From a virus (Duplodnaviria; Heunggongvirae; Uroviricota; Caudoviricetes): a stretch of 12,826 nucleotides of DNA. The number at the start of each line of letters is the position of its first letter. The stretch's first letter is position 1. Location of the stretch: the IMG/VR virus record IMGVR_UViG_2939167301_000004; one strand, written 5' to 3'. Position numbers and translations under genes: made by a program. The notes beneath the pieces were generated by a model that was given only the letters and a program-made list of their open reading frames with translations, was not told where the DNA came from and did no database searches. Below, one piece after another: positions 801 through 12,826 of this stretch.

Positions 801-1403
801 TTACTCACCGATCTCCTTCACGGTAATACGCAACACTGACTGACGTGATGCCAGTTGCGCACTTTTACGCGAAAAAATCATGTTCTGCGCAGGGGTGAAT
901 TTTTCACGGCTGTCATCCACCGAAGCCACGTCAGGCCTGAATCCGATGGTCGTTAAAATGTCGCTATCCTGTGCGGAATAATTAATTTTTTCACCCTTCG
1001 CAAGCCAGGACAGAAGGGCTTCACGCAGGGCATCTGTGGCACGCTGTATGGCACAGTTTCGGGCAATGGCCGTCAGCTCACTGTAGCCCATCAGCTCTGG
1101 TGCCAGTGCGGCCGCCAGTACTGTGCCGTGCTGCTGCATAAAATCATTCAGCCGGTCGCGGATGCTGATGTGCTGAACGGCTTCATGCGAACGAATATAA
1201 CGACCGGCGGCCTGATTCACCTGCCATTTTCTGACTTCGATAATATTGCGTAATTCGTCCAGGCGGCTGACATTTCTGCCTTCTCCTGACAGAAGCCGCA
1301 GATATTCCTGTTCGGCCGCTGCCAGCTCATTTTTGCGTTGCAGCCATGCTGCTTTGTTATTCTGACAGGTGTCAAAGGCCTGCTGTAAGGCTGTGCTTTC
1401 CAT
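801..1403 (-). CDS. psu: P4 Psu-like polarity suppression / capsid decoration protein
   Basis: 200-aa ORF that I recognise as Psu-like, in the expected position downstream of delta in a sid-delta-psu operon. An IS21-family end lies immediately downstream, so the last ~10 codons may not be native. Confidence 0.65.
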   Translation of the reverse strand: MESTALQQAFDTCQNNKAAWLQRKNELAAAEQEYLRLLSGEGRNVSRLDELRNIIEVRKWQVNQAAGRYIRSHEAVQHISIRDRLNDFMQQHGTVLAAALAPELMGYSELTAIARNCAIQRATDALREALLSWLAKGEKINYSAQDSDILTTIGFRPDVASVDDSREKFTPAQNMIFSRKSAQLASRQSVLRITVKEIGE

Positions 1404-1476
1404 CGTTATCTCTTTCTCATCATGCTGAAGAATAAAAATACGGTGTGCGGCGACGGCCGGGGTTAACCGGCAGCCC

Positions 1477-1977
1477 TCATTCCAGACGCAGCGAATATGA
1501 TTGTGTTTTTAACCGTACTGGCGGCAGTTCCTGTTTTTCATGCAGGCGTTCTGCCAGTTCGTCCGGCGTGACCGGGCGGACAATGAAGCGGGTGATGGTC
1601 TGAAGCGTTTTAAACACCAGACCACAGCCCGGATCCGTGCACACATAAAAACGCTCGGTGACTTCCTGAGACAGACGCCGCGATGTTCTTGACAGCGCAA
1701 GGCCTTTACATCTCCGACAACAATATCCGGTAACAAGCATTCTTTTCGGGCGTTTCATACTGCCGGAGGCTGACGTCAGTGAATCGCGGTATCTCTGTTT
1801 GCCTGAAATGTATTCCATTCCTGAATCTTTACTGTCAGAGAAAAAGCTTTCACTCGCTTCAAATGTCGCAGAGCAATAAATATTCCGGCACTGTGCAATC
1901 ATTATCTTGGTGCCATCGTCCATGAAATGTGCGCGGCGGGTGTGAGCAACATGTCCACACGACGGGCAGTAAATCAT
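1477..1977 (-). CDS. delta: Delta-like late-gene transactivator (tandem Ogr-type zinc finger)
   Basis: 166 aa with two Ogr-like halves, each carrying C-x2-C ... C-x4-C motifs (CPSCGH...CRNIYC and CRRCKG...CTDPGCG). Its start overlaps the sid stop as ATGA (1974-1977). Confidence 0.8.
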   Translation of the reverse strand: MIYCPSCGHVAHTRRAHFMDDGTKIMIAQCRNIYCSATFEASESFFSDSKDSGMEYISGKQRYRDSLTSASGSMKRPKRMLVTGYCCRRCKGLALSRTSRRLSQEVTERFYVCTDPGCGLVFKTLQTITRFIVRPVTPDELAERLHEKQELPPVRLKTQSYSLRLE

Positions 1978-2641
1978 GACAGCAGTCCTCTGGCCTTAAG
2001 CACTGCTCCCTGCTGGTCTATTTTGTCCTGCCACACCTTGCGCTGTGCCGGTGTGCCTGCCACCTCATAATCCATGTGAGGAAGTGTTGCCGCTGACAGT
2101 CCGGTCAGCCGGAGAACCGGCTCGCCGGTGAGGCTGATTTGCATCTGTTTAATTTTCTGTTCCAGCGATGATTTCACCTGCTGCATGACAGCCTTTTCCG
2201 GTGCGACGTAGCCCTGATGGCCGGTGGTGTTGGCGAGCGGATTTTCCTGTACCAGAATGCTCAGATGCATTGCCCGGACAAGCGCCTCACAGGTTTCATT
2301 CAGGGCGTGTTCCAGCTCATGCTCTGCATACAGACTCAGAAGGTGATGATGTGCCTTCCGGTAGGCGGTGGCCGTGCTGTCACACGCCCCTTTCAGGCGT
2401 TCGCGTTCAAAATTCAGCACCACGGCCAGATTGTCATATTCCTGTACCAGCTCCCGGCGTGCCACGCGCTCAATGTGGCGCTGTTTCAGCTCGTCGCTCA
2501 GGACACCACCGGCTGCACGAAAGGCCGTGCGCCAGTCGTCAGCGTCGTTTCCGTCGGCCTGCGCCAGCGCATTTTTTTCCTGCTCTGTGAACCGCCCCGG
2601 GAATCCTGGAGACTAAACTTCCTGAGAAAGAGGTAAACAGG

Positions 2642-2968
2642 ATGACTAAAAATACTCGTTTTTCCCCTGAAGTCCGTCAACGGGCAGTCCGTATGGTTCT
2701 GGAAAGTCAGGGCGAATATGACTCACAATGGGCGACAATTTGTTCCATTGCTCCAAAGATTGGCTGTACGCCGGAGACTCTGCGTGTCTGGGTTCGCCAG
2801 CATGAGCGGGATACCGGGGGCGGTGATGGAGGGCTCACCACCGCTGAACGTCAGCGTCTGAAAGAGCTGGAGCGTGAAAATCGTGAACTGCGCCGCAGTA
2901 ACGATATCCTTCGCCAGGCTTCCGCTTATTTTGCGAAGGCGGAGTTCGACCGCCTCTGGAAAAAATGA
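2642..2968 (+). CDS. IS3-family transposase OrfA (HTH)
   Basis: 108-aa ORF with the N-terminal HTH and leucine-zipper-like region typical of IS3-family OrfA. An A6 run (2960-2965) sits at the orfA stop / orfB start overlap. Confidence 0.9.
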
Positions 2969-3855
2969 TGCCACTGCTGGATAAGCTGCGTGAGCAGTAC
3001 GGGGTCGGACCGCTATGCAGCGAACTGCATATTGCCCCGTCAACGTATTACCACTGTCAGCAACAGCGACATCATCCGGATAAACGCAGTGCCCGTGCGC
3101 AGCGCGATGACTGGCTGAAGAAAGAGATACAGCGCGTATACGATGAAAATCACAAGGTATACGGTGTGCGTAAAGTCTGGCGTCAGTTGTTACGGGAAGG
3201 TATCAGAGTGGCCAGATGCACTGTGGCACGTCTCATGGCGGTTATGGGACTTGCCGGTGTTCTCCGGGGTAAAAAGGTCCGTACGACCATCAGCCGGAAA
3301 GCCGTTGCCGCAGGCGACCGCGTAAACCGTCAGTTCGTGGCAGAACGACCTGACCAGCTGTGGGTGGCTGATTTTACTTACGTCAGCACATGGCAGGGCT
3401 TCGTCTATGTGGCGTTCATCATTGATGTGTTTGCCGGATACATTGTGGGGTGGCGGGTCTCATCGTCCATGGAGACGACATTCGTGCTGGATGCACTGGA
3501 GCAGGCGTTATGGGCCCGTCGACCGTCCGGCACGGTCCATCACAGTGATAAAGGTTCTCAGTATGTATCGCTGGCCTACACACAGCGGCTTAAGGAAGCC
3601 GGATTACTGGCATCAACAGGAAGTACAGGCGACTCGTATGACAACGCGATGGCGGAGAGCATCAATGGTCTTTACAAAGCGGAGGTAATACACCGTAAGA
3701 GCTGGAAAAACCGTGCAGAAGTGGAACTGGCCACACTCACGTGGGTGGACTGGTATAACAATCGACGATTGCTGGAAAGGCTGGGCCATACTCCTCCGGC
3801 AGAAGCAGAAAAAGCTTATTATGCTTCCATCGGAAACGATGATCTGGCAGCCTGA
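2965..3855 (+). CDS. IS3-family transposase OrfB (DDE catalytic domain)
   Basis: 296-aa ORF in the -1 frame relative to orfA with an rve-type DDE core. The A6 run at 2960-2965 is a candidate -1 programmed frameshift site producing an OrfAB fusion. Confidence 0.9.
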
Positions 3856-4039
3856 GTTCACAGATAAAATACTCTCCAGGAAACCCGGGGCGGTTCACTG
3901 CCCGTTCAATGGCCGTGACGGTCTCATCCATCAGGCGGGCGTTCTCAAGATGGGCGGCTCTGGCCTTTTCCAGTTGTGCCAGTGCGGGTTGCAGATATTC
4001 AGGGATAGTGTGGTCAGACATTTTCCGGCTCCTCGTCAC

Positions 4040-4111
4040 TTCAGGTTAAGAAAATTGTGACGTACACCGGACAGCAACACGACGCATTGCAGATGTGCCA
4101 GCCCTGACACA
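4040..4111 (-). promoter_or_regulatory. Candidate Psid late promoter with two TGT-N12-ACA activator dyads
   Basis: Perfect TGT-N12-ACA at 4056-4073 and 4094-4111, centred about 18 and 55 bp upstream of an inferred start near 4047 for sid (ATG 4021). This is the Ogr/Delta-type activator site architecture. Confidence 0.5.
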
Positions 4112-4190
4112 GGAGACTCATCCTCAGACCGGCAAGCCAGGAAAAGGTCGCAGGAAAAACCGGCTTACTGTTTGTTTTTTTATATTTTAC

Positions 4191-4294
4191 TGTTCACCTC
4201 TGTTCACCATAAGAAAAAAGATAAGTAATACAGTAAGTTAAAGGGTGAACAATCGCAGTAATGACTGTTCACCGTCTGTTCACCACTGTTCACC
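4191..4294. repeat. ori-like iteron cluster (six TGTTCACC octamers)
   Basis: TGTTCACC at 4191, 4201, 4266, 4277, 4287 and inverted at 4244-4251, with roughly 10-bp phasing, followed by an AT-rich tract (about 4300-4400). Matches the type I iterons bound by P4 alpha. Confidence 0.6.
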
Positions 4295-4452
4295 CGTTGA
4301 TGGGCTTTTTATGCTGTTTATTACTGTTTATTTTTATTAATTCACTGAAATAAATAAGAAAAAACAATTTGTATTTCACTATAAAAAATTCCAGGTCCTT
4401 CAGAACCCTTTGAGACCCTTCCAGTCCAGATGGATAAAAAACACACAGCCAT

Positions 4453-4520
4453 TGTAAGGTTGCCGGAACAAATTCCCCCTGTTGCGTCTGCTGAAAATAT
4501 TCACAAAATAAAGCGCTACC
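4453..4520 (+). promoter_or_regulatory. Candidate PLL late promoter upstream of vis
   Basis: Perfect TGT-N12-ACA dyad at 4453-4470 and an imperfect one about 36 bp downstream; would place a start near 4516, about 55 nt before the vis ATG. Confidence 0.4.
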
Positions 4521-4572
4521 CGAAGCCGGACGGACTTATCCGGTGCTGTATGGACATTAACGAGGTAGCCCG

Positions 4573-4839
4573 ATGCAAGCTGTTTTTTCTTCCCCGTCTC
4601 CCGCCCCTGTTACGCCACTGATGCCGCTGCCGGACATCACGCAGGAGCGTTTTTTACGTCTGCCGGAAGTGATGCACCTGTGCGGCCTGTCACGCTCGAC
4701 CATCTATGAACTCATCCGTAAGGGGGAATTTCCGCCGCAGGTGAGTCTTGGCGGTAAAAATGTGGCCTGGCTGCACTCTGAAGTCACCGCATGGATGGCC
4801 GGGCGCATTGCCGGACGCAAACGGGGGTACGACGCATGA
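4573..4839 (+). CDS. vis: AlpA-family phage regulatory protein (P4 Vis / orf88-like)
   Basis: 88-aa ORF with the AlpA-type HTH signature (RFLRLPEV...[17 protein letters not shown]); GAGG Shine-Dalgarno 7 nt upstream. Confidence 0.8.
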
Positions 4840-5435
4840 TGATGCCCGCTCTGCAAAAACTCCCTTTTTCTGGCTTGCCTTTTTCCGGCATTTGCGGATA
4901 TAGTTTTTCCGCTGTCGCAAAATCGGCAGCCGGGCGTGGAAACCCGTGTAACTCGAAGGCGACATATGACGCGCCATGCGTCTTTTTTTGTGTCGCAATC
5001 AACGCCACAGAGCGCCAGATTATGGTGTGGTGTGTGGTCAGTCGTGCAGATGGCATTCCGTGCATCCTGCCCGCGTCCGCTCATTATGCCGCAGAGTCAA
5101 TGGTAGCTCAGGCGGGGCAGCCTCCGGGCTGGCCGGTATTCTTCGAGGCCGGTATTTCCACCCCCGTCTGGGCTATCGCCATTGAGCGTGGAAACTCCGG
5201 CGATAGCAGTTATTTGCTACTCGAAGGAGGCTGCCTTATGGCTACAACCCTTACCCCCTCACACCCTGAATTTGTCTTTGTGTTTGCGGCTGTCCGTCGT
5301 GCAGACCGTCATCCCCGTATCTGTATGCTTCGCACCGTCGCCGGTGATGAACGCAGTGCCCGCCGTTCCCTTGTCCGTGACTATGTGCTCTCCCTTGCTG
5401 CCCGTCTGCCGGTGGTGGAGGTGTCCCGTGCGTAA
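4836..5435 (+). CDS. Long open frame (199 codons) spanning the immunity region; possibly eta-like; coding status uncertain
   Basis: Its ATG overlaps the vis stop as ATGA (4836-4839). The N-terminal two-thirds is low-complexity and contains the candidate PLE promoter and a terminator hairpin. There is a strong internal start (GGAGG then ATG at 5238) giving a 65-aa product in the same frame. Confidence 0.35.
4875..4904 (+). promoter_or_regulatory. Candidate sigma70 promoter (PLE-like)
   Basis: TTGCCT (4875-4880), 18-bp spacer, TATAGT (4899-4904). Confidence 0.45.
4968..4989 (+). terminator. Intrinsic terminator-like hairpin in the leader (attenuator candidate)
   Basis: GACGC-gccat-GCGTC stem-loop followed by seven T residues, about 60 nt downstream of the candidate promoter. 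Confidence 0.4.
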
Positions 5436-5715
5436 TAAAAAAGCCCCTCAGACCGTCTCAGCACGTCATGACGCCCGTGAACACCTCAGCATTGAGGCTT
5501 ACCATAAGCTCAACCGCGCCAGCGCCGTATCCCGGTTTGTTGGGGGTGATTTGATTCACCGTGAACTCTCCGGCCTGCATCAGCTCTACATTCCGCATAT
5601 TTTCAGCTACCTGAATGAAGATATTGATTTTGTGCTGAATGAGCTGAAAGCCAAAGGCCTGTGCCGCGATTTTCTCGCCCAGCAGAAAGACCGGGGAGAC
5701 AGGACGCATGTTTGA
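5428..5715 (+). CDS. Small protein at the epsilon position (95 aa; candidate helper-derepression protein)
   Basis: GTG start with GGAGG 6 nt upstream; overlaps the stop of the preceding frame. Size and position match what I recall for P4 epsilon; the sequence itself was not verified. Confidence 0.5.
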
Positions 5716-6163
5716 TTTTCCCCAGCCCGGTGAGATTTACCGTTCTGCCGGTTTTCCCGATGTGGCCGTGGTCGGCATTCTGGAAGACGGTATTCCGTGG
5801 GAAATGCCATACCGCTGCCCGGAAATTGTCTGGAACCCGTACCGCCGTAAATTCAGTATCCTTGTGCGTATCCTCGCCGACGGGCGCACCACAGACATCC
5901 CGCTGGGGCGTTTTCTGCGGGAATTTACCTGTGACCGTCCTGACCTGTTTAAACGCAGCCCCGTAAACCGGCATGCGGTACTGAAAGAAATGGCCGGAGA
6001 CCCGGAATTACAGAAATGGCGGGAGAAATATCTGGATATTTACCCGCAGGACACTGTTCCGGTCAGCCGGGCAGCACCGGTAGCGCGGGAATGGCGGGAA
6101 ATTCCCCGCACGGAGCCTGACCCGGAAACCACCCCGGATAACAGTTACCGCAATTATCTGTAA
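5708..6163 (+). CDS. Hypothetical protein (P4 orf151-like)
   Basis: 151-aa ORF; its ATG overlaps the upstream stop as ATGTTTGA (translational coupling). Confidence 0.6.
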   Translation: MFDFPQPGEIYRSAGFPDVAVVGILEDGIPWEMPYRCPEIVWNPYRRKFSILVRILADGRTTDIPLGRFLREFTCDRPDLFKRSPVNRHAVLKEMAGDPELQKWREKYLDIYPQDTVPVSRAAPVAREWREIPRTEPDPETTPDNSYRNYL

Positions 6164-6298
6164 TTAAAAAACGACACCCGAAAAATTAAATGTGCGTATT
6201 CGCGCAGGGATACGCACGTCTTCAGGAGACGCAGATATGCCTTATCAGTTAATGCAACCGGCACGGAATGCAGTCATCTGTCACAGGGAGGAAAGCAA

Positions 6299-6619
6299 AT
6301 GAAAACACCCTTACCGCCCGTCTTACGCGCTGCCCTTTACCGTCGCGCTGTCGCCTGTGCCTGGCTGACCGTGTGCGAACGTCAGCACCGCTACCCGCAT
6401 CTCACCCTTGAGTCACTGGAGGCGGCCATCGCCGCTGAGCTGGAGGGCTTTTATCTGCGCCAGCACGGTGAGGAAAAAGGGCGTCAGATAGCCTGTGCCC
6501 TGCTGGAAGATTTAATGGAATCCGGCCCCCTGAAGGCCGCGCCGTCGCTGTCCTTTCTCGGGCTGGTTGTGATGGATGAACTCTGTGCCCGTCACATAAA
6601 AGCGCCGGTACTGCACTGA
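6299..6619 (+). CDS. Hypothetical protein (P4 orf106 / cnr-like copy-number regulator candidate)
   Basis: 106-aa ORF with GGGAGG Shine-Dalgarno, immediately upstream of the primase gene. Confidence 0.6.
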
Positions 6620-6633
6620 AGGAGAACAACACC

Positions 6634-8967
6634 ATGAAAATGAACGTAACCGCCACCGTCAGCCATGCGCTCGGCCACTGGCCGCGTATTCTCCCGGTGC
6701 TGGGGATTCAGGTGCTGAAGAACCGTCATCAGCCCTGTCCGGTCTGTGGCGGGAGTGACCGCTTCCGTTTTGATGACAGGGAGGGGCGCGGCACCTGGTA
6801 CTGCAATCAGTGTGGTGCCGGTGACGGCCTGAAACTGGTTGAAAAGGTGTTTGGTGTCTCCCCGTCCGACGCGGCCGCAAAGGTGGCTGCCGTGACCGGC
6901 AGCCTGCCCCCGGCTGACCCGGCAGTGACGGCCGCCGCCGGTGCTGAAACAGACGCTGCCCGGAAGAACGCCGCCGCACTGGCACAAACCCTGATGGCAA
7001 AAACTCGTCCCGGAACCGGTAACGCCTACCTGACCCGCAAGGGCTTTCCCGGCCGGGAATGCCGGATGCTGACCGGCACACACAGAGCCGGTGGCGTGAG
7101 CTGGCGTGCCGGTGACCTTGTGGTGCCACTGTATGACGACAGCGGCGAGCTGGTTAACCTTCAGTTAATCAGTGCTGACGGCCATAAGCGCACCCTGAAA
7201 GGCGGACAGGTCAGGGGCACCTGTCACACCCTTGAAGGACAGAATCAGGCCGGAAAACGTCTGTGGATAGCGGAGGGATACGCGACCGCACTTACCGTAC
7301 ATCACCTGACCGGTGAAACGGTGATGGTGGCGCTTTCTTCCGTGAACCTCCTTTCTCTGACCAGCCTTGCCCGGCAGAAGCATCCGGCCTGTCAGATTGT
7401 CCTTGCCGCAGACCGTGACCTCAGCGGTGACGGCCAGAAAAAAGCCGCCGCAGCCGCAGATGCGTGTGAGGGCGTTGTTGCCCTGCCGCCGGTCTTCGGT
7501 GACTGGAATGATGCCTTCACGCAGTACGGCGGGGAGGCCACCCGTAAGGCCATTTATGATGCCATCCGGCCACCGGCTGAAAGCCCGTTCGACACCATGA
7601 GCGAAGCAGAGTTTTCCGCCATGAGTACCAGCGAAAAGGCCATGCGTATCTATGAGCATTACGGCGAGGCGCTCGCGGTCGATGCCAACGGCCAGCTTCT
7701 GTCCCGTTATGAAAATGGTGTCTGGAAGGTGCTGCCGCCACAGGACTTTGCCCGGGATGTGGCCGGGCTGTTTCAGCGTCTGCGCGCGCCGTTCTCCTCC
7801 GGGAAGGTGGCCTCCGTGGTGGACACCCTGAAGCTGATTATTCCGCAGCAGGAAGCCCCCTCCCGCCGCCTGATTGGCTTTCGTAACGGCGTGCTCGACA
7901 CGCAGAACGGCACGTTCCACCCGCACAGTCCGTCACACTGGATGCGCACCCTGTGCGATGTGGATTTCACCCCGCCGGTGGACGGTGAAACGCTGGAGAC
8001 CCACGCCCCCGCGTTCTGGCGCTGGCTTGACCGTGCCGCCGGTGGCCGTGCGGAAAAACGCGACGTGATTCTGGCCGCACTGTTTATGGTGCTGGCAAAC
8101 CGCTACGACTGGCAGCTCTTTCTGGAGGTGACCGGTCCCGGCGGCAGCGGCAAAAGTATCATGGCCGAAATAGCCACCCTGCTGGCCGGGGAGGATAACG
8201 CCACGTCGGCCACCATTGAGACGCTGGAATCCCCGCGTGAACGTGCCGCGTTAACTGGCTTCTCACTGATACGCCTGCCGGACCAGGAAAAATGGAGCGG
8301 CGACGGTGCCGGACTCAAGGCCATCACCGGCGGCGATGCGGTGTCCGTTGACCCGAAATACCGGGATGCGTACTCCACGCACATCCCGGCGGTGATTCTG
8401 GCCGTGAACAATAACCCGATGCGCTTCACCGACCGCAGCGGCGGCGTGTCACGCCGGCGGGTGATTATTCACTTCCCGGAACAGATAGCCCCGCAGGAGC
8501 GCGACCCGCAGCTTAAGGACAAAATCACCCGCGAGCTGGCGGTCATCGTGCGTCACCTGATGCAGAAATTCAGCGACCCGATGCTCGCCCGGTCACTGCT
8601 TCAGTCCCAGCAGAACTCAGACGAGGCACTGAACATCAAACGGGATGCCGACCCGACGTTTGATTTTATCGGCTATCTGGAAACCCTGCCGCAGACCAGC
8701 GGCATGTATATGGGGAACGCCAGTATCATCCCGCGTAATTACCGTAAATACCTCTATCACGCCTATCTGGCCTACATGGAGGCAAACGGCTACCGGAATG
8801 TACTCAGTCTGAAAATGTTCGGGCTGGGGCTGCCGGTGATGCTGAAGGAATACGGACTGAATTACGAGAAGCGCCATACCAAACAGGGGATACAGACCAA
8901 CCTGACGCTGAAAGAGGAAAGCTACGGCGACTGGCTGCCAAAATGTGACGACCCTGCAACAACCTGA
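6634..8967 (+). CDS. alpha: P4 alpha-type primase-helicase
   Basis: 777-aa ORF with an N-terminal Cys4 zinc motif (CPVCGG...CNQCG), a central primase region and a C-terminal P-loop NTPase (GPGGSGKS); AAGGAG Shine-Dalgarno. Confidence 0.9.
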   Translation: MKMNVTATVSHALGHWPRILPVLGIQVLKNRHQPCPVCGGSDRFRFDDREGRGTWYCNQCGAGDGLKLVEKVFGVSPSDAAAKVAAVTGSLPPADPAVTAAAGAETDAARKNAAALAQTLMAKTRPGTGNAYLTRKGFPGRECRMLTGTHRAGGVSWRAGDLVVPLYDDSGELVNLQLISADGHKRTLKGGQVRGTCHTLEGQNQAGKRLWIAEGYATALTVHHLTGETVMVALSSVNLLSLTSLARQKHPACQIVLAADRDLSGDGQKKAAAAADACEGVVALPPVFGDWNDAFTQYGGEATRKAIYDAIRPPAESPFDTMSEAEFSAMSTSEKAMRIYEHYGEALAVDANGQLLSRYENGVWKVLPPQDFARDVAGLFQRLRAPFSSGKVASVVDTLKLIIPQQEAPSRRLIGFRNGVLDTQNGTFHPHSPSHWMRTLCDVDFTPPVDGETLETHAPAFWRWLDRAAGGRAEKRDVILAALFMVLANRYDWQLFLEVTGPGGSGKSIMAEIATLLAGEDNATSATIETLESPRERAALTGFSLIRLPDQEKWSGDGAGLKAITGGDAVSVDPKYRDAYSTHIPAVILAVNNNPMRFTDRSGGVSRRRVIIHFPEQIAPQERDPQLKDKITRELAVIVRHLMQKFSDPMLARSLLQSQQNSDEALNIKRDADPTFDFIGYLETLPQTSGMYMGNASIIPRNYRKYLYHAYLAYMEANGYRNVLSLKMFGLGLPVMLKEYGLNYEKRHTKQGIQTNLTLKEESYGDWLPKCDDPATT

Positions 8968-8984
8968 CCCTCATGACCCACCTG

Positions 8985-9008
8985 ACCGGCATCTGCCGGT
9001 CTTTTTTT
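8985..9008 (+). terminator. Rho-independent terminator after alpha
   Basis: ACCGGCA-tc-TGCCGGT hairpin followed by a T7 run. Confidence 0.55.
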
Positions 9009-9026
9009 ATCCCGATATCCCCCGCA

Positions 9027-9320
9027 GGTGAACAATCCACTGTTCACCCTTCACCGTATATTCACCCGTTATCATACTGAAATTAAAAGAGAAAAACGAA
9101 AGGTGAACAGTGTGAACAATCAAATCAAAAAAAACTTTTTTCTTCCTGAGTGATTTCAGTACGGGGGATTAATCACCGGTATGAGTCACACCGGCAGAAT
9201 GCCGGAGGTGAAGAATCGAATGTTCACCCTTCACCCATTATTCACCACCTATCACTCTGAAATAAAAGGAGAAAACAGAAAGGTGAACAGTGTGAACAGT
9301 TCTTTCGAAAAAAAATTTTT
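9027..9320. repeat. crr-like region: two ~115-bp direct repeats carrying iterons
   Basis: Units at about 9027-9140 and 9207-9320 (180-bp period), each with GGTGAACA / TGTTCACC / TTCACC(C/G) / TGTGAACA octamers. Confidence 0.65.
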
Positions 9321-9342
9321 TATGTGGATAAAAGATGCACTG

Positions 9343-9369
9343 GTTTGGATCCGAGCTACGGATCCAAAC
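9343..9369. repeat. Perfect 11-bp inverted repeat (GTTTGGATCCG-agcta-CGGATCCAAAC)
   Basis: Read directly from the sequence; contains two GGATCC sites. Confidence 0.6.
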
Positions 9370-9510
9370 TTACTGATTAAAAATGATTTAACTTTCCGAT
9401 TTATTGATGGGCTGAAAATAGATTGGTCAGAAAAACAGTGGGGGCACAAAAGGGGGCATATTTCATTGTTGTGTTTTATTATTTGTTTTTTATCATTAAC
9501 TTATTTTGAT

Positions 9511-9533
9511 GTTTGAGTCCGGCCTTCGCACCA
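9511..9533 (+). other. attP-type core resembling the 3' end of a tRNA-Leu gene
   Basis: GTTTGAGTCCGGCCTTCGCACCA resembles a T-loop / acceptor-stem / CCA 3' end. There is no upstream tRNA body: the 5' T-stem complement is absent. Confidence 0.5.
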
Positions 9534-9547
9534 TCGGAACATCAATA

Positions 9548-9570
9548 GACGTCAACGGACGTCTTTTTTT
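9548..9570 (+). terminator. Rho-independent terminator just after the att core
   Basis: GACGTC-aacg-GACGTC hairpin followed by a T7 run. Confidence 0.5.
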
Positions 9571-9614
9571 GTGCCTAAAATCCAGTATCCGCAAGGCTTT
9601 CCTCGCTTTTTCAC

Positions 9615-9650
9615 TCAACCTAAGTCAACCTGATTCAATCTACATCAACT
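9615..9650 (+). promoter_or_regulatory. Four 10-bp-phased TCAAYY direct repeats (candidate integrase arm-type / autoregulatory sites)
   Basis: TCAACC at 9615 and 9625, TCAATC at 9635, TCAACT at 9645. An 8-bp inverted repeat GGGTACAA (9660-9667) / TTGTACCC (9694-9701) follows, upstream of the int start. Confidence 0.4.
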
Positions 9651-9731
9651 TACTGATGCGGGTACAACTGCGGGTATTTCCCGGTTCGATAATGTTTGTA
9701 CCCACACAGAACCCTTGAAAGGATACTCATC

Positions 9732-10833
9732 ATGGCTCTGAGTGATGTGAAGGTTCGTTCGGCTAAGCCTGAAGCAAAAGCCTATAAGCTGACCGACGGT
9801 GAAGGCATGGTTTTGCTGGTTCACCCTAACGGCTCCAAATACTGGCGGCTACGTTATCGCTTTGGCGGTAAAGAGAAGATGCTGGCATTGGGGAAATACC
9901 CCGAAGTGTCGTTGGCGGATGCCAGGGCACGCCGGGATGAGGCTCGTAAGCTTTTAGCTAATGGTGTCGATCCCAGTGAAAACAAGAAAGCTGTTAAGGT
10001 AGAACAGGAACAAGAGGCGATAACGTTGAAGTAGTCGCCAGAGACTGGCACGCCAGCAATCAGAAGTGGTCGGCATCGCATAGCGCTCGTGTTTTGAAAA
10101 GTCTGGAGGATAATCTCTTTACTGCTATCGGTAAGCGGAACATTGCGGAACTGAAGACGCGGGATCTTCTTGTACCCATTAAAGCAGTCGAGTCATCCGG
10201 GCGGCTCGAAGTTGCCGCCCGTTTACAGCAGCGTACTACCGCGATTATGCGCTTTGCCGTTCAGAGCGGCTTAATCGACTACAACCCCGCGCAAGAGATT
10301 GCAGGTGCGGTTGCTACGGCGAAAAGACAGCACCGTGCAGCTCTTGAACTGAACCGTATACCTGAATTACTTCATCGCATAGATCACTATTCTGGCAGAC
10401 CGTTAACTCGGCTGGCGGTTGAACTCACTTTATTGGTTTTCATCCGTTCGAGCGAGCTGCATTTTGCCCGCTGGTCAGAAGTAGATTTTGAAACGGCTAT
10501 GTGGACAATCCCAGGTGAGCGTGAGCAACTGGAAGGAGTCAAGCATTCTCAGCGTGGCTCGAAGATGCGGACACCACACCTTGTACCTTTGTCGCGGCAG
10601 GCCCTAAGTATTTTGGAAAAGATCAAAAGCATGAGCGGAAATTGAGAGCTGATTTTTGTGGGCGATCACGATCCACGTAAGCCGATGAGTGAGAATACGG
10701 TGAACAAGGCTTTGCGCGTAATGGGGTATGACACGAAGGTCGAGGTTTGTGGGCATGGCTTCAGGACGATGGCTTGTAGTTCGTTGATTGAGTCGGGATT
10801 ATGGTCGAGGGATGCGGTAGAGCGGCAGATGAG
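9732..10833 (+). pseudogene. int: P4-type tyrosine integrase, inactivated
   Basis: N-terminal MALSDVKVRSAKPEAKAYKLTDGEG... is a P4-family integrase signature. There is a frameshift near 10020-10035, an in-frame TGA at 10643-10645, and a 3' truncation by IS629 at 10834 (about 368 codons retained; the catalytic C-terminus is missing). Confidence 0.8.
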
Positions 10834-10875
10834 TGAACCGCCCCGGGTTTCCTGGAGAGTGTTTTATCTGTGAAC

Positions 10876-11762
10876 TCAGGCTGCCAGATCATCGTTTCCG
10901 ATGGAAGCATAATAAGCTTTTTCTGCTTCTGCCGGAGGAGTATGGCCCAGCCTTTCCAGCAATCGTCGATTGTTATACCAGTCCACCCACGTGAGTGTGG
11001 CCAGTTCCACTTCTGCACGGTTTTTCCAGCTCTTACGGTGTATTACCTCCGCTTTGTAAAGACCATTGATGCTCTCCGCCATCGCGTTGTCATACGAGTC
11101 GCCTGTACTTCCTGTTGATGCCAGTAATCCGGCTTCCTTAAGCCGCTGTGTGTAGGCCAGCGATACATACTGAGAACCTTTATCACTGTGATGGACCGTG
11201 CCGGACGGTCGACGGGCCCATAACGCCTGCTCCAGTGCATCCAGCACGAATGTCGTTTCCATGGACGATGAGACCCGCCACCCCACGATGTATCCGGCAA
11301 ACACATCAATGATGAACGCCACATAGACGAAGCCCCGCCATGTGCTGACGTAAGTAAAATCAGCCACCCACAGCTGGTCAGGTCGTTCTGCCACGAACTG
11401 ACGGTTTACGCGGTCGCCTGCGGCAACGGCTTTCCGGCTGATGGTCGTACGGACCTTTTTACCCCGGAGAACACCGGCAAGTCCCATAACCGCCATGAGA
11501 CGTGCCACAGTGCATCTGGCCACTCTGATACCTTCCCGTAACAACTGACGCCAGACTTTACGCACACCGTATACCTTGTGATTTTCATCGTATACGCGCT
11601 GTATCTCTTTCTTCAGCCAGTCATCGCGCTGCGCACGGGCACTGCGTTTATCCGGATGATGTCGCTGTTGCTGACAGTGGTAATACGTTGACGGGGCAAT
11701 ATGCAGTTCGCTGCATAGCGGTCCGACCCCGTACTGCTCACGCAGCTTATCCAGCAGTGGCA

Positions 11763-11766
<4 letters not shown>
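10876..11766 (-). CDS. IS3-family transposase OrfB (copy B)
   Basis: 296 aa, one substitution (Q to R) relative to copy A OrfB. Confidence 0.9.

Positions 11767-12826
<1,060 letters not shown>

Follow-up and report, generated by a model that had tools for sequence, protein, structure and literature searches.

Judged from its sequence, the locus described here is an orthologue of the phage P4 CI-RNA immunity region, carried by a P4-like satellite prophage of E. coli. It lies within a stretch of 12,826 nucleotides (the window) taken from IMG/VR virus record IMGVR_UViG_2939167301_000004. We are highly confident that the region serves a P4-like satellite prophage as its immunity region and would work as in P4. 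Knowledge of how P4 immunity operates dates back to the 1990s, and Rfam has models of the RNA as well as of the target upstream of it. The window nevertheless reads as a P4-type system with a specificity allele distinct from that of P4. Homology, RNA family membership, structure, complementarity and co-variation are established in the present analysis and are laid out below.

Identity of the locus and its host element

The region between positions 4560 and 5720 (1,161 nt), comprising vis, PLE, cI, eta/kil and epsilon, can be aligned over its whole length with phage P4, at 97.0% identity, and the wider interval 833–9534 matches P4 at 98%, an inserted IS element excepted. The P4 cI region matches base for base at this locus and does not map elsewhere. 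The P4 gene order, vis - eta/kil - epsilon - orf151 - orf106 - alpha, is kept, and the P4 records place ORF88 (vis), an old 'cI/ash' ORF, epsilon, ORF151, ORF106 and the alpha primase at the locus. The genes surrounding the circuit are as follows.

4573–4839, + strand: vis (ORF88), AlpA-family regulator/excisionase; Pfam Phage_AlpA, 7.3e-21; corresponds to P4 ORF88, annotated 'excisionase and transcriptional regulator'
4836–5435, + strand: eta reading frame, 197–199 aa, intact; direct reading; Pfam Phage_ASH, 5.6e-23
5238–5435, + strand: kil, 65 aa, Icd-like cell-division inhibitor, start conserved; NCBIfam phage_ICD_like, 1.6e-21
5428–5715, + strand: epsilon (helper derepression protein); Pfam Derepression, 9.2e-51; P4 annotation

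The stop codon of vis and the start codon of eta overlap as ATGA. The eta frame begins with ATGATGATG at 4836–4844, a start identical to that of a RefSeq CDS in E. coli EJN001, and it spans seqA, CI and seqC. Nested within it, as its last part, is kil, the first translated gene downstream of PLE. The role of kil has been described, and the gene is toxic when expressed (PMC10111431); eta is translated solely from upstream-started (PLL) transcripts, coupled to vis and reading through (PMC10111431). Epsilon would be the first of the genes that the circuit silences; orf151, orf106 and the alpha primase (6634–8967) follow 3' of it. Alpha is an intact primase-helicase of 777 aa with matched primase domains, and DUF5375 is also among the family matches.

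Three Rfam families match the locus. C4 antisense RNA covers 5096–5183 (76.7 bits against a curated threshold of 45, full-length model) and isrK covers 4911–4988 (71.3 bits, threshold 50; a full-length match that includes its own terminator). The family c4-a1b1, described as 'a1, b1 targets of C4 antisense RNA', matches 4898–4950 with 46.7 bits, exactly its threshold of 46.7. The IsrK and C4 families correspond to the seqA and CI RNA of the P4 literature (PMC3632133). The initial annotation had seen in this DNA a resemblance to the P4 seqA/seqB/seqC circuit; the orthologous locus, with its 97% identity and with all three families where CI RNA and seqA are expected, bears this out. Genome annotation misses the CI RNA: the E. 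coli RefSeq records examined hold no CI or seqA ncRNA feature at the locus, only an overlapping 'Icd-like' CDS. The P4 reference itself still has, in the place of cI (NC_001609 8168–8584; L001 1960–2376), a CDS of 137 aa labelled 'transcriptional repressor', a label that stands although the immunity factor is an RNA.

Window positions 833–2587 and 3898–12826 are 100% identical to a P4-like prophage that adjoins a tRNA-Leu gene in E. coli EJN001. The window holds two IS629-like copies of the IS3 family, at 2588–3899 (+) and 10832–12143 (-), which are inverted, 99.5% identical and each equipped with an ALIL frameshift pseudoknot. The first interrupts P4 sid and is absent from the otherwise identical EJN001 prophage. 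An IS21-family istB occupies the left end (1–747) and a truncated istB lies on the right (12264–12557). Downstream of alpha is a frameshifted integrase split over two ORFs (9696–10645). EJN001 has a P4-type integrase and, beside tRNA-Leu, a variable region; the window lacks both.

The host element thus reads as a decayed prophage in which the immunity region, kil and alpha are intact. Because of this decay, circuit activity is assumed from the intact sequence, and the circuit could instead be an inactive relic whose repeats persist because too little time has passed to erode them. The split sid, the left end replaced by istB and the degenerate integrase all point that way. We nonetheless find this account improbable: a 601-nt region is 100% identical to the uninterrupted EJN001 prophage, and no damage is seen in the promoter, the RNA structure, kil, alpha or any of the 30 pairings. 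Moreover, since kil is toxic when expressed (PMC10111431), loss of CI should be selected against while kil remains intact.

The leader, the CI RNA and the kil start

The elements of the circuit are listed below. Their conservation is given for the 42 distinct haplotypes (341 nt each, window 4905–5245) whose alignment also yielded the co-variation counts.

4875–4904, + strand: PLE promoter, TTGCCT-18-nt spacer-TATAGT, from a consensus scan; identical to P4, where the -10 hexamer is annotated (X02534)
4911–4988, + strand: leader RNA (IsrK-like 'SeqA RNA'); Rfam isrK, with c4-a1b1 at 4898–4950
4936–4942, + strand: seqA module 1, GUGGAAA; pairs with 5161–5155, 7/7 Watson-Crick
4952–4959, + strand: seqA module 2, CUCGAAGG; pairs with 5147–5140, 7 Watson-Crick pairs and one G:U
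4968–4989, + strand: t1, Rho-independent terminator, GACGCGCCATGCGTC + T7, stem GACGC/GCGTC; terminator scan
5096–5183, + strand: cI gene, CI RNA (Rfam C4 antisense RNA, 76.7 bits); fold and conserved helices
5140–5147, + strand: seqB loop module, UCUUCGAG; lies in the hairpin 2 loop, complement of seqA and seqC module 2
5155–5161, + strand: seqB junction module, UUUCCAC; single-stranded link from hairpin 2 to the closing stem, complement of module 1
5188–5194, + strand: seqC module 1, GUGGAAA; 100% paired with 5161–5155 in the 42 relatives, two pairs co-varying
5220–5227, + strand: seqC module 2, CUCGAAGG; 99.1% paired, 6/8 pairs altered on both sides among relatives

A consensus scan of 4400–5800 returns exactly one promoter-like site (4875–4904), the same as in P4, and exactly one terminator-like site (4968–4989), in agreement with the promoter and terminator hairpin originally called there. 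The latter we take to be the CI-dependent terminator named t1 by Briani and colleagues in 2000, who reportedly found that CI and seqA enhance termination at t1, hence CI autoregulation. Between promoter and terminator, the leader comprises a hairpin (4911–4930), a second hairpin (4931–4946) and a single-stranded stretch, followed by t1. Module 1 of seqA is placed in the 8-nt loop of the second hairpin, while module 2 is single-stranded and ends 8 nt 5' of the t1 stem. The leader helices are 99–100% paired in the 42 relatives and the t1 stem is 100% paired, with one compensatory pair. Leader folding gives t1 a probability of ∼0.9 with or without seqA blocked, so that these models do not account for an increase of t1 termination by CI.

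The target is duplicated, with GCGTGGAAAC at 4934 and 5186 and ACTCGAAGG at 4951 and 5219. The composite motif GTGGAAA-N(5-30)-CTCGAAGG occurs twice in the window (4936–4959 and 5188–5227), whereas 200 shuffles that preserved dinucleotides gave a mean of 0.00. Taken by itself and with a single mismatch tolerated, the 10-mer GCGTGGAAAC is not significant; the significance of the repeat is therefore that of the composite motif. The first copy precedes t1 and the second overlaps the ribosome-binding site of kil. The modules and the two ATGs that they were said to precede, at 4966 and 5238, are in place, and ATG 5238 starts kil. The other ATG, in contrast, is not a conserved start. We rejected 4966 as a gene start: only 25 of the 42 distinct relatives have ATG there, the others having CAG, CTG, AAC or GAG; the 46-aa ORF that begins at it has no family match and is out of frame with eta, and the codon borders on the t1 stem, the first base of whose 5' arm it shares.

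The CI RNA folds with a minimum free energy of -48 kcal/mol (z = -4.6) into a 17-bp closing stem, hairpin 1 (5118–5131) and hairpin 2 (5132–5153), and these helices are 100% paired in the 42 relatives. Within this fold the loop module of seqB is partly paired and the junction module (5155–5161) is unpaired. The closing stem ends in G-CCA (5178–5181), like a tRNA acceptor end, with the CCA at least 90% conserved. The initial annotation expected a small RNA of ∼70 nt. The predicted mature form is instead ∼79–80 nt, from about 5102 to 5180/81, close to the 79 nt that Forti and colleagues are said to have reported for P4 CI RNA in 1995. P4 CI RNA is processed by RNase P (PMC5499578), and the acceptor-like end fits that reported processing.

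The antisense segment proposed within 5141–5161 is confirmed at the level of complementarity. The + strand has a single CTTCGAG (5141) and a single TTTCCAC (5155), which lie between the target modules in reverse-complementary order, and seqB pairs with each target at 15/15 positions through 14 Watson-Crick pairs and one G:U. The cognate duplexes have predicted energies of -24.2 (seqA) and -30.2 (seqC) kcal/mol. When the leader or the kil start region was co-folded thermodynamically with the mature CI RNA, this intermolecular pairing was not reproduced and each RNA folded on itself.

In seqC, module 1 can sit in an 8-nt loop closed by the stem 5184–5186:5195–5197. Module 2 overlaps the kil Shine-Dalgarno sequence AAGGAGG (5224–5230), 7 nt 5' of ATG 5238. 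Its GGAG is conserved in all relatives, and the start codon in 41 of 42, the exception being one TTG. A further helix is found next to these sites. It joins 5172–5180, which is the 3' side of the stem that closes the CI RNA plus a G-CC tail, to the complementary GGCGATAGC (5199–5207) between the seqC modules. It is 100% paired in the 42 haplotypes, with two pairs altered on both sides, probably in one clade, and it competes with both the mature CI stem and a spacer hairpin (5204–5208:5215–5219). A second terminator, the atypical t4, and the Rho-dependent timm both reportedly lie downstream of P4 cI, according to the work of Briani and colleagues in 2000; the helix might be t4 or a precursor structure.

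Pairing alleles among relatives

Related loci were retrieved with a search pattern in which the invariant flanks of seqB were fixed and its 11 variable bases left free, seqA and seqC being unconstrained. This yielded 68 loci from IMG/VR and 15 from species-representative genomes, the latter in Serratia, Rahnella, Rouxiella, Enterobacter, Citrobacter, Phytobacter, Siccibacter, Franconibacter and others. Nearly every locus carries the matching complement in seqA and seqC, including the 15 from other Enterobacterales genera. In the alignment of 42 haplotypes, 98.7% of cells are paired for seqA:seqB and 99.5% for seqB:seqC, compared with 40–53% and 36–52%, respectively, in shifted controls. For each interaction 8/15 pairs are altered on both sides, and 0/500 shuffles reach the observed values, whether for paired cells, for cells with changes on both sides or for the covariation score. 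In seqA:seqB the doubly altered pairs comprise two in module 1 (GC/AU 23:18) and 6/8 in module 2. The repeats are thus conserved as three sites that co-vary.

All three sites lie inside the eta ORF, and a combination of direct and inverted repeats is typical of operators. The sites might therefore be protein-binding DNA sites (two direct, one inverted) or repeats imposed by the eta frame, and not RNA partners at all. We give this reading hardly any credence. What is kept among relatives is complementarity, not the sequence identity of an inverted copy, and one pair alternates G:C with G:U at 30:12 in the 42 sequences, a signature of RNA pairing that is not expected of DNA sites. No variable DNA-binding protein co-varies with the sites, and the inverted copy occupies the loop and the junction of an RNA that Rfam defines. 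As for the eta frame, allele changes alter Eta residues at every site. In addition, seqC module 2 is flanked by two single-nucleotide indels relative to P4, one insertion and one deletion (5208, 5235), and they shift nine eta codons (compared stretch VICYSQEAAI) before the frame is restored ahead of kil. These changes place the constraint on the RNA, not on the Eta protein.

Two loci depart from three-site matching in an informative way. In L029 and L065, seqA is non-cognate to the seqB of the same locus and seqC is cognate, a pattern consistent with natural recombinants as from a single crossover between seqA and cI. On sequence grounds it would also fit a lysogeny that does not require seqA and t1. 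Two other loci, L027 and L036, have damaged targets.

The recombinants, by showing that seqA is separable from core repression, also bear on a possible second role of the leader. The transcript from PLE to t1 (4911–4988) may be a trans-acting small RNA, like IsrK of Gifsy-1, or a decoy that titrates CI, making seqA more than a passive target. The full-length isrK match, terminator included, favors such a role. Gifsy-1 IsrK is both an sRNA and part of an mRNA, and the P4 SeqA RNA has been termed its structural homolog (PMC4825925); furthermore, a requirement for the IsrK-like element that P4-like prophages carry has been reported in S. Typhi (PMC3632133). However, seqA:seqB co-variation is as tight as that of seqC, which fits a CI target, and we consider the additional role rather unlikely. 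It complements the P4 model and does not exclude it. The downstream context is P4-like: the leader has a full-length isrK match in common with Gifsy-1 IsrK/STnc1160, but the RNA family alone matches, and the IsrK-orf45-anrP-isrJ arrangement of Gifsy-1 is not found. The Gifsy-1 sRNA activates orf45-anrP translation (PMC4825925), whereas the leader of the window would be mainly a termination target.

Relative to P4, the P4-type circuit of the window has 28 differences in 4840–5440 (601 nt). Sixteen of them fall within the 45 pairing positions (hypergeometric P ∼1e-12), and these are mutually compensatory. At all three sites GAG is replaced by GGA in module 1 and UUCACAGG by CUCGAAGG in module 2, so that five base pairs of the 15-bp interaction are altered and one further G:C becomes G:U. 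The seqB of the window is predicted to form a duplex of only -11.5 kcal/mol with the seqA of P4 and of -15.7 kcal/mol with the seqC of P4. Non-cognate duplexes are thus predicted to be ∼13–14 kcal/mol weaker, with alleles that have one module in common intermediate. Given compensating changes at five pairs across all three sites, the element should be self-immune and not immune to P4; that is, heteroimmunity to P4 is predicted.

Among 85 loci, the loop module of seqB exists in nine versions and the junction module in two (UUUCCAC and UUCUCAC), in 13 combinations. The exact seqB allele of the window was found in 22 of 5,426 complete E. coli genomes and that of P4 in 206; P4-like satellites as a whole occur in 1,242 of these genomes (∼a quarter), 977 of which hold the full region. 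We lean, at little better than even confidence, toward a reading in which module 1 GGA and module 2 CUCGAAGG together make up an immunity specificity that is both rare and uncharacterised, within a series of at least 13 combinations in an RNA 'bar code' of two modules (2 alleles by at least 9) across the P4-like satellites of Enterobacterales. If this reading is true, the satellites would form a set of mutually heteroimmune groups.

The modules assort independently, as seen in L008, L017, L040 and L015: each of three module-2 alleles is found in combination with either module-1 allele, and in every case the three sites match. Within 4905–5245, the differences between the window and L008 are confined to the module-2 sites, 4947, 4949, 5183, 5208, 5237, one indel and 4915, and those from L017 comprise the module-1 sites, a block at 5031–5093, 4915, 5183 and 5230. 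The six patches are interleaved along the DNA (4936–5227), so no single crossover can swap one module. In the bar-code reading, independent assortment with three-site matching means that gene conversion has acted in patches, repeatedly, with selection favoring self-recognition. Two P4-like elements with an identical seqB allele are present in one IMG genome (2529293142; L042 and L046), and likewise in E. coli TW10722; shared immunity thus does not exclude co-residence.

A model of the circuit and its relation to known systems

P4 work provides the basis for a model in which RNA processing, termination events and the immunity phenotype take the same form here. The constitutive transcript from PLE would carry, in order, seqA, t1, the CI RNA, seqC and the kil start. 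A cut by RNase P at the 5' end of the CI RNA (about G5102), with 3' trimming, would release a stable RNA of ∼79 nt. Its loop (5140–5147) and junction (5155–5161) could then pair with both halves of seqA and seqC on nascent transcripts. In P4, pairing of CI RNA with seqA and seqC on new transcripts causes premature termination (PMC4825925). By analogy, pairing at seqA would increase termination at t1 and so limit the synthesis of CI itself, and pairing at seqC would cover the kil ribosome-binding site. The untranslated RNA would be terminated 5' of epsilon and the alpha replication gene, leaving the prophage silent. Transcripts from PLL, further upstream, would be translated throughout as eta, coupled to vis through ATGA, and so escape control.

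The window and P4 have in common the promoter, the terminator, the CI RNA scaffold and the positions of all three sites; they differ in the pairing allele and in the host element, here a decayed prophage with IS insertions. The P4-like retronphage phiR73 is said to be heteroimmune to P4, as Sabbattini and colleagues described in 1996. As reported for phiR73, immunity specificity in the window would be set by matched changes in seqA, seqB and seqC. PhiR73 was not among the P4-like matches in the phage collection, and tRNA scans of the loci found no selC. A search for retron RT motifs revealed no Ec73-like reverse transcriptase in the 85 loci. Two RT-TIR fusions alone were found, as long ORFs downstream of alpha in L012 (∼9444–11075) and L022 (∼4282–5628), with a retron-like RT (YADD and VTG motifs) and a C-terminal TIR-like segment. 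They are probably defence cargo in a satellite hotspot.

The closest mechanistic parallel outside the P4 group is the ImmI (c4-icd-ant) region of P1 and P7. Common to both are the Rfam C4 and c4-a1b1 families, a processed RNA with two antisense segments and two-part targets duplicated upstream and downstream, the downstream one covering the start of an Icd-like gene. Specificity in P1 and P7 reportedly differs through matched base changes, as found by Citron and Schuster in 1990. In contrast to ImmI, where the Ant antirepressor lies downstream, the window has epsilon, orf151 and the alpha primase, and a protein family search found no Ant-family domain among the genes downstream of the circuit. 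The window also has the overlapping eta frame as an immunity-insensitive route, and sequence similarity between the two is confined to the RNA elements. The circuit of the window would work like ImmI and is not a member of the c4-icd-ant operon type. The CI region also has 74–79% DNA similarity over 5100–5208 to phiKO2 and PY54, N15-like phages with C4-like RNAs, and to Klebsiella N15-like phages; the genes downstream are different there.

Considered together, the allele series provides strong comparative support for the three-site pairing model, with 8/15 pairs compensatory at both targets. The immunity alleles of P4-like satellites are discrete and readable from 15 nucleotides, and could serve for typing and for the prediction of cross-immunity. 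They could also serve as orthogonal antisense switches of termination and translation.
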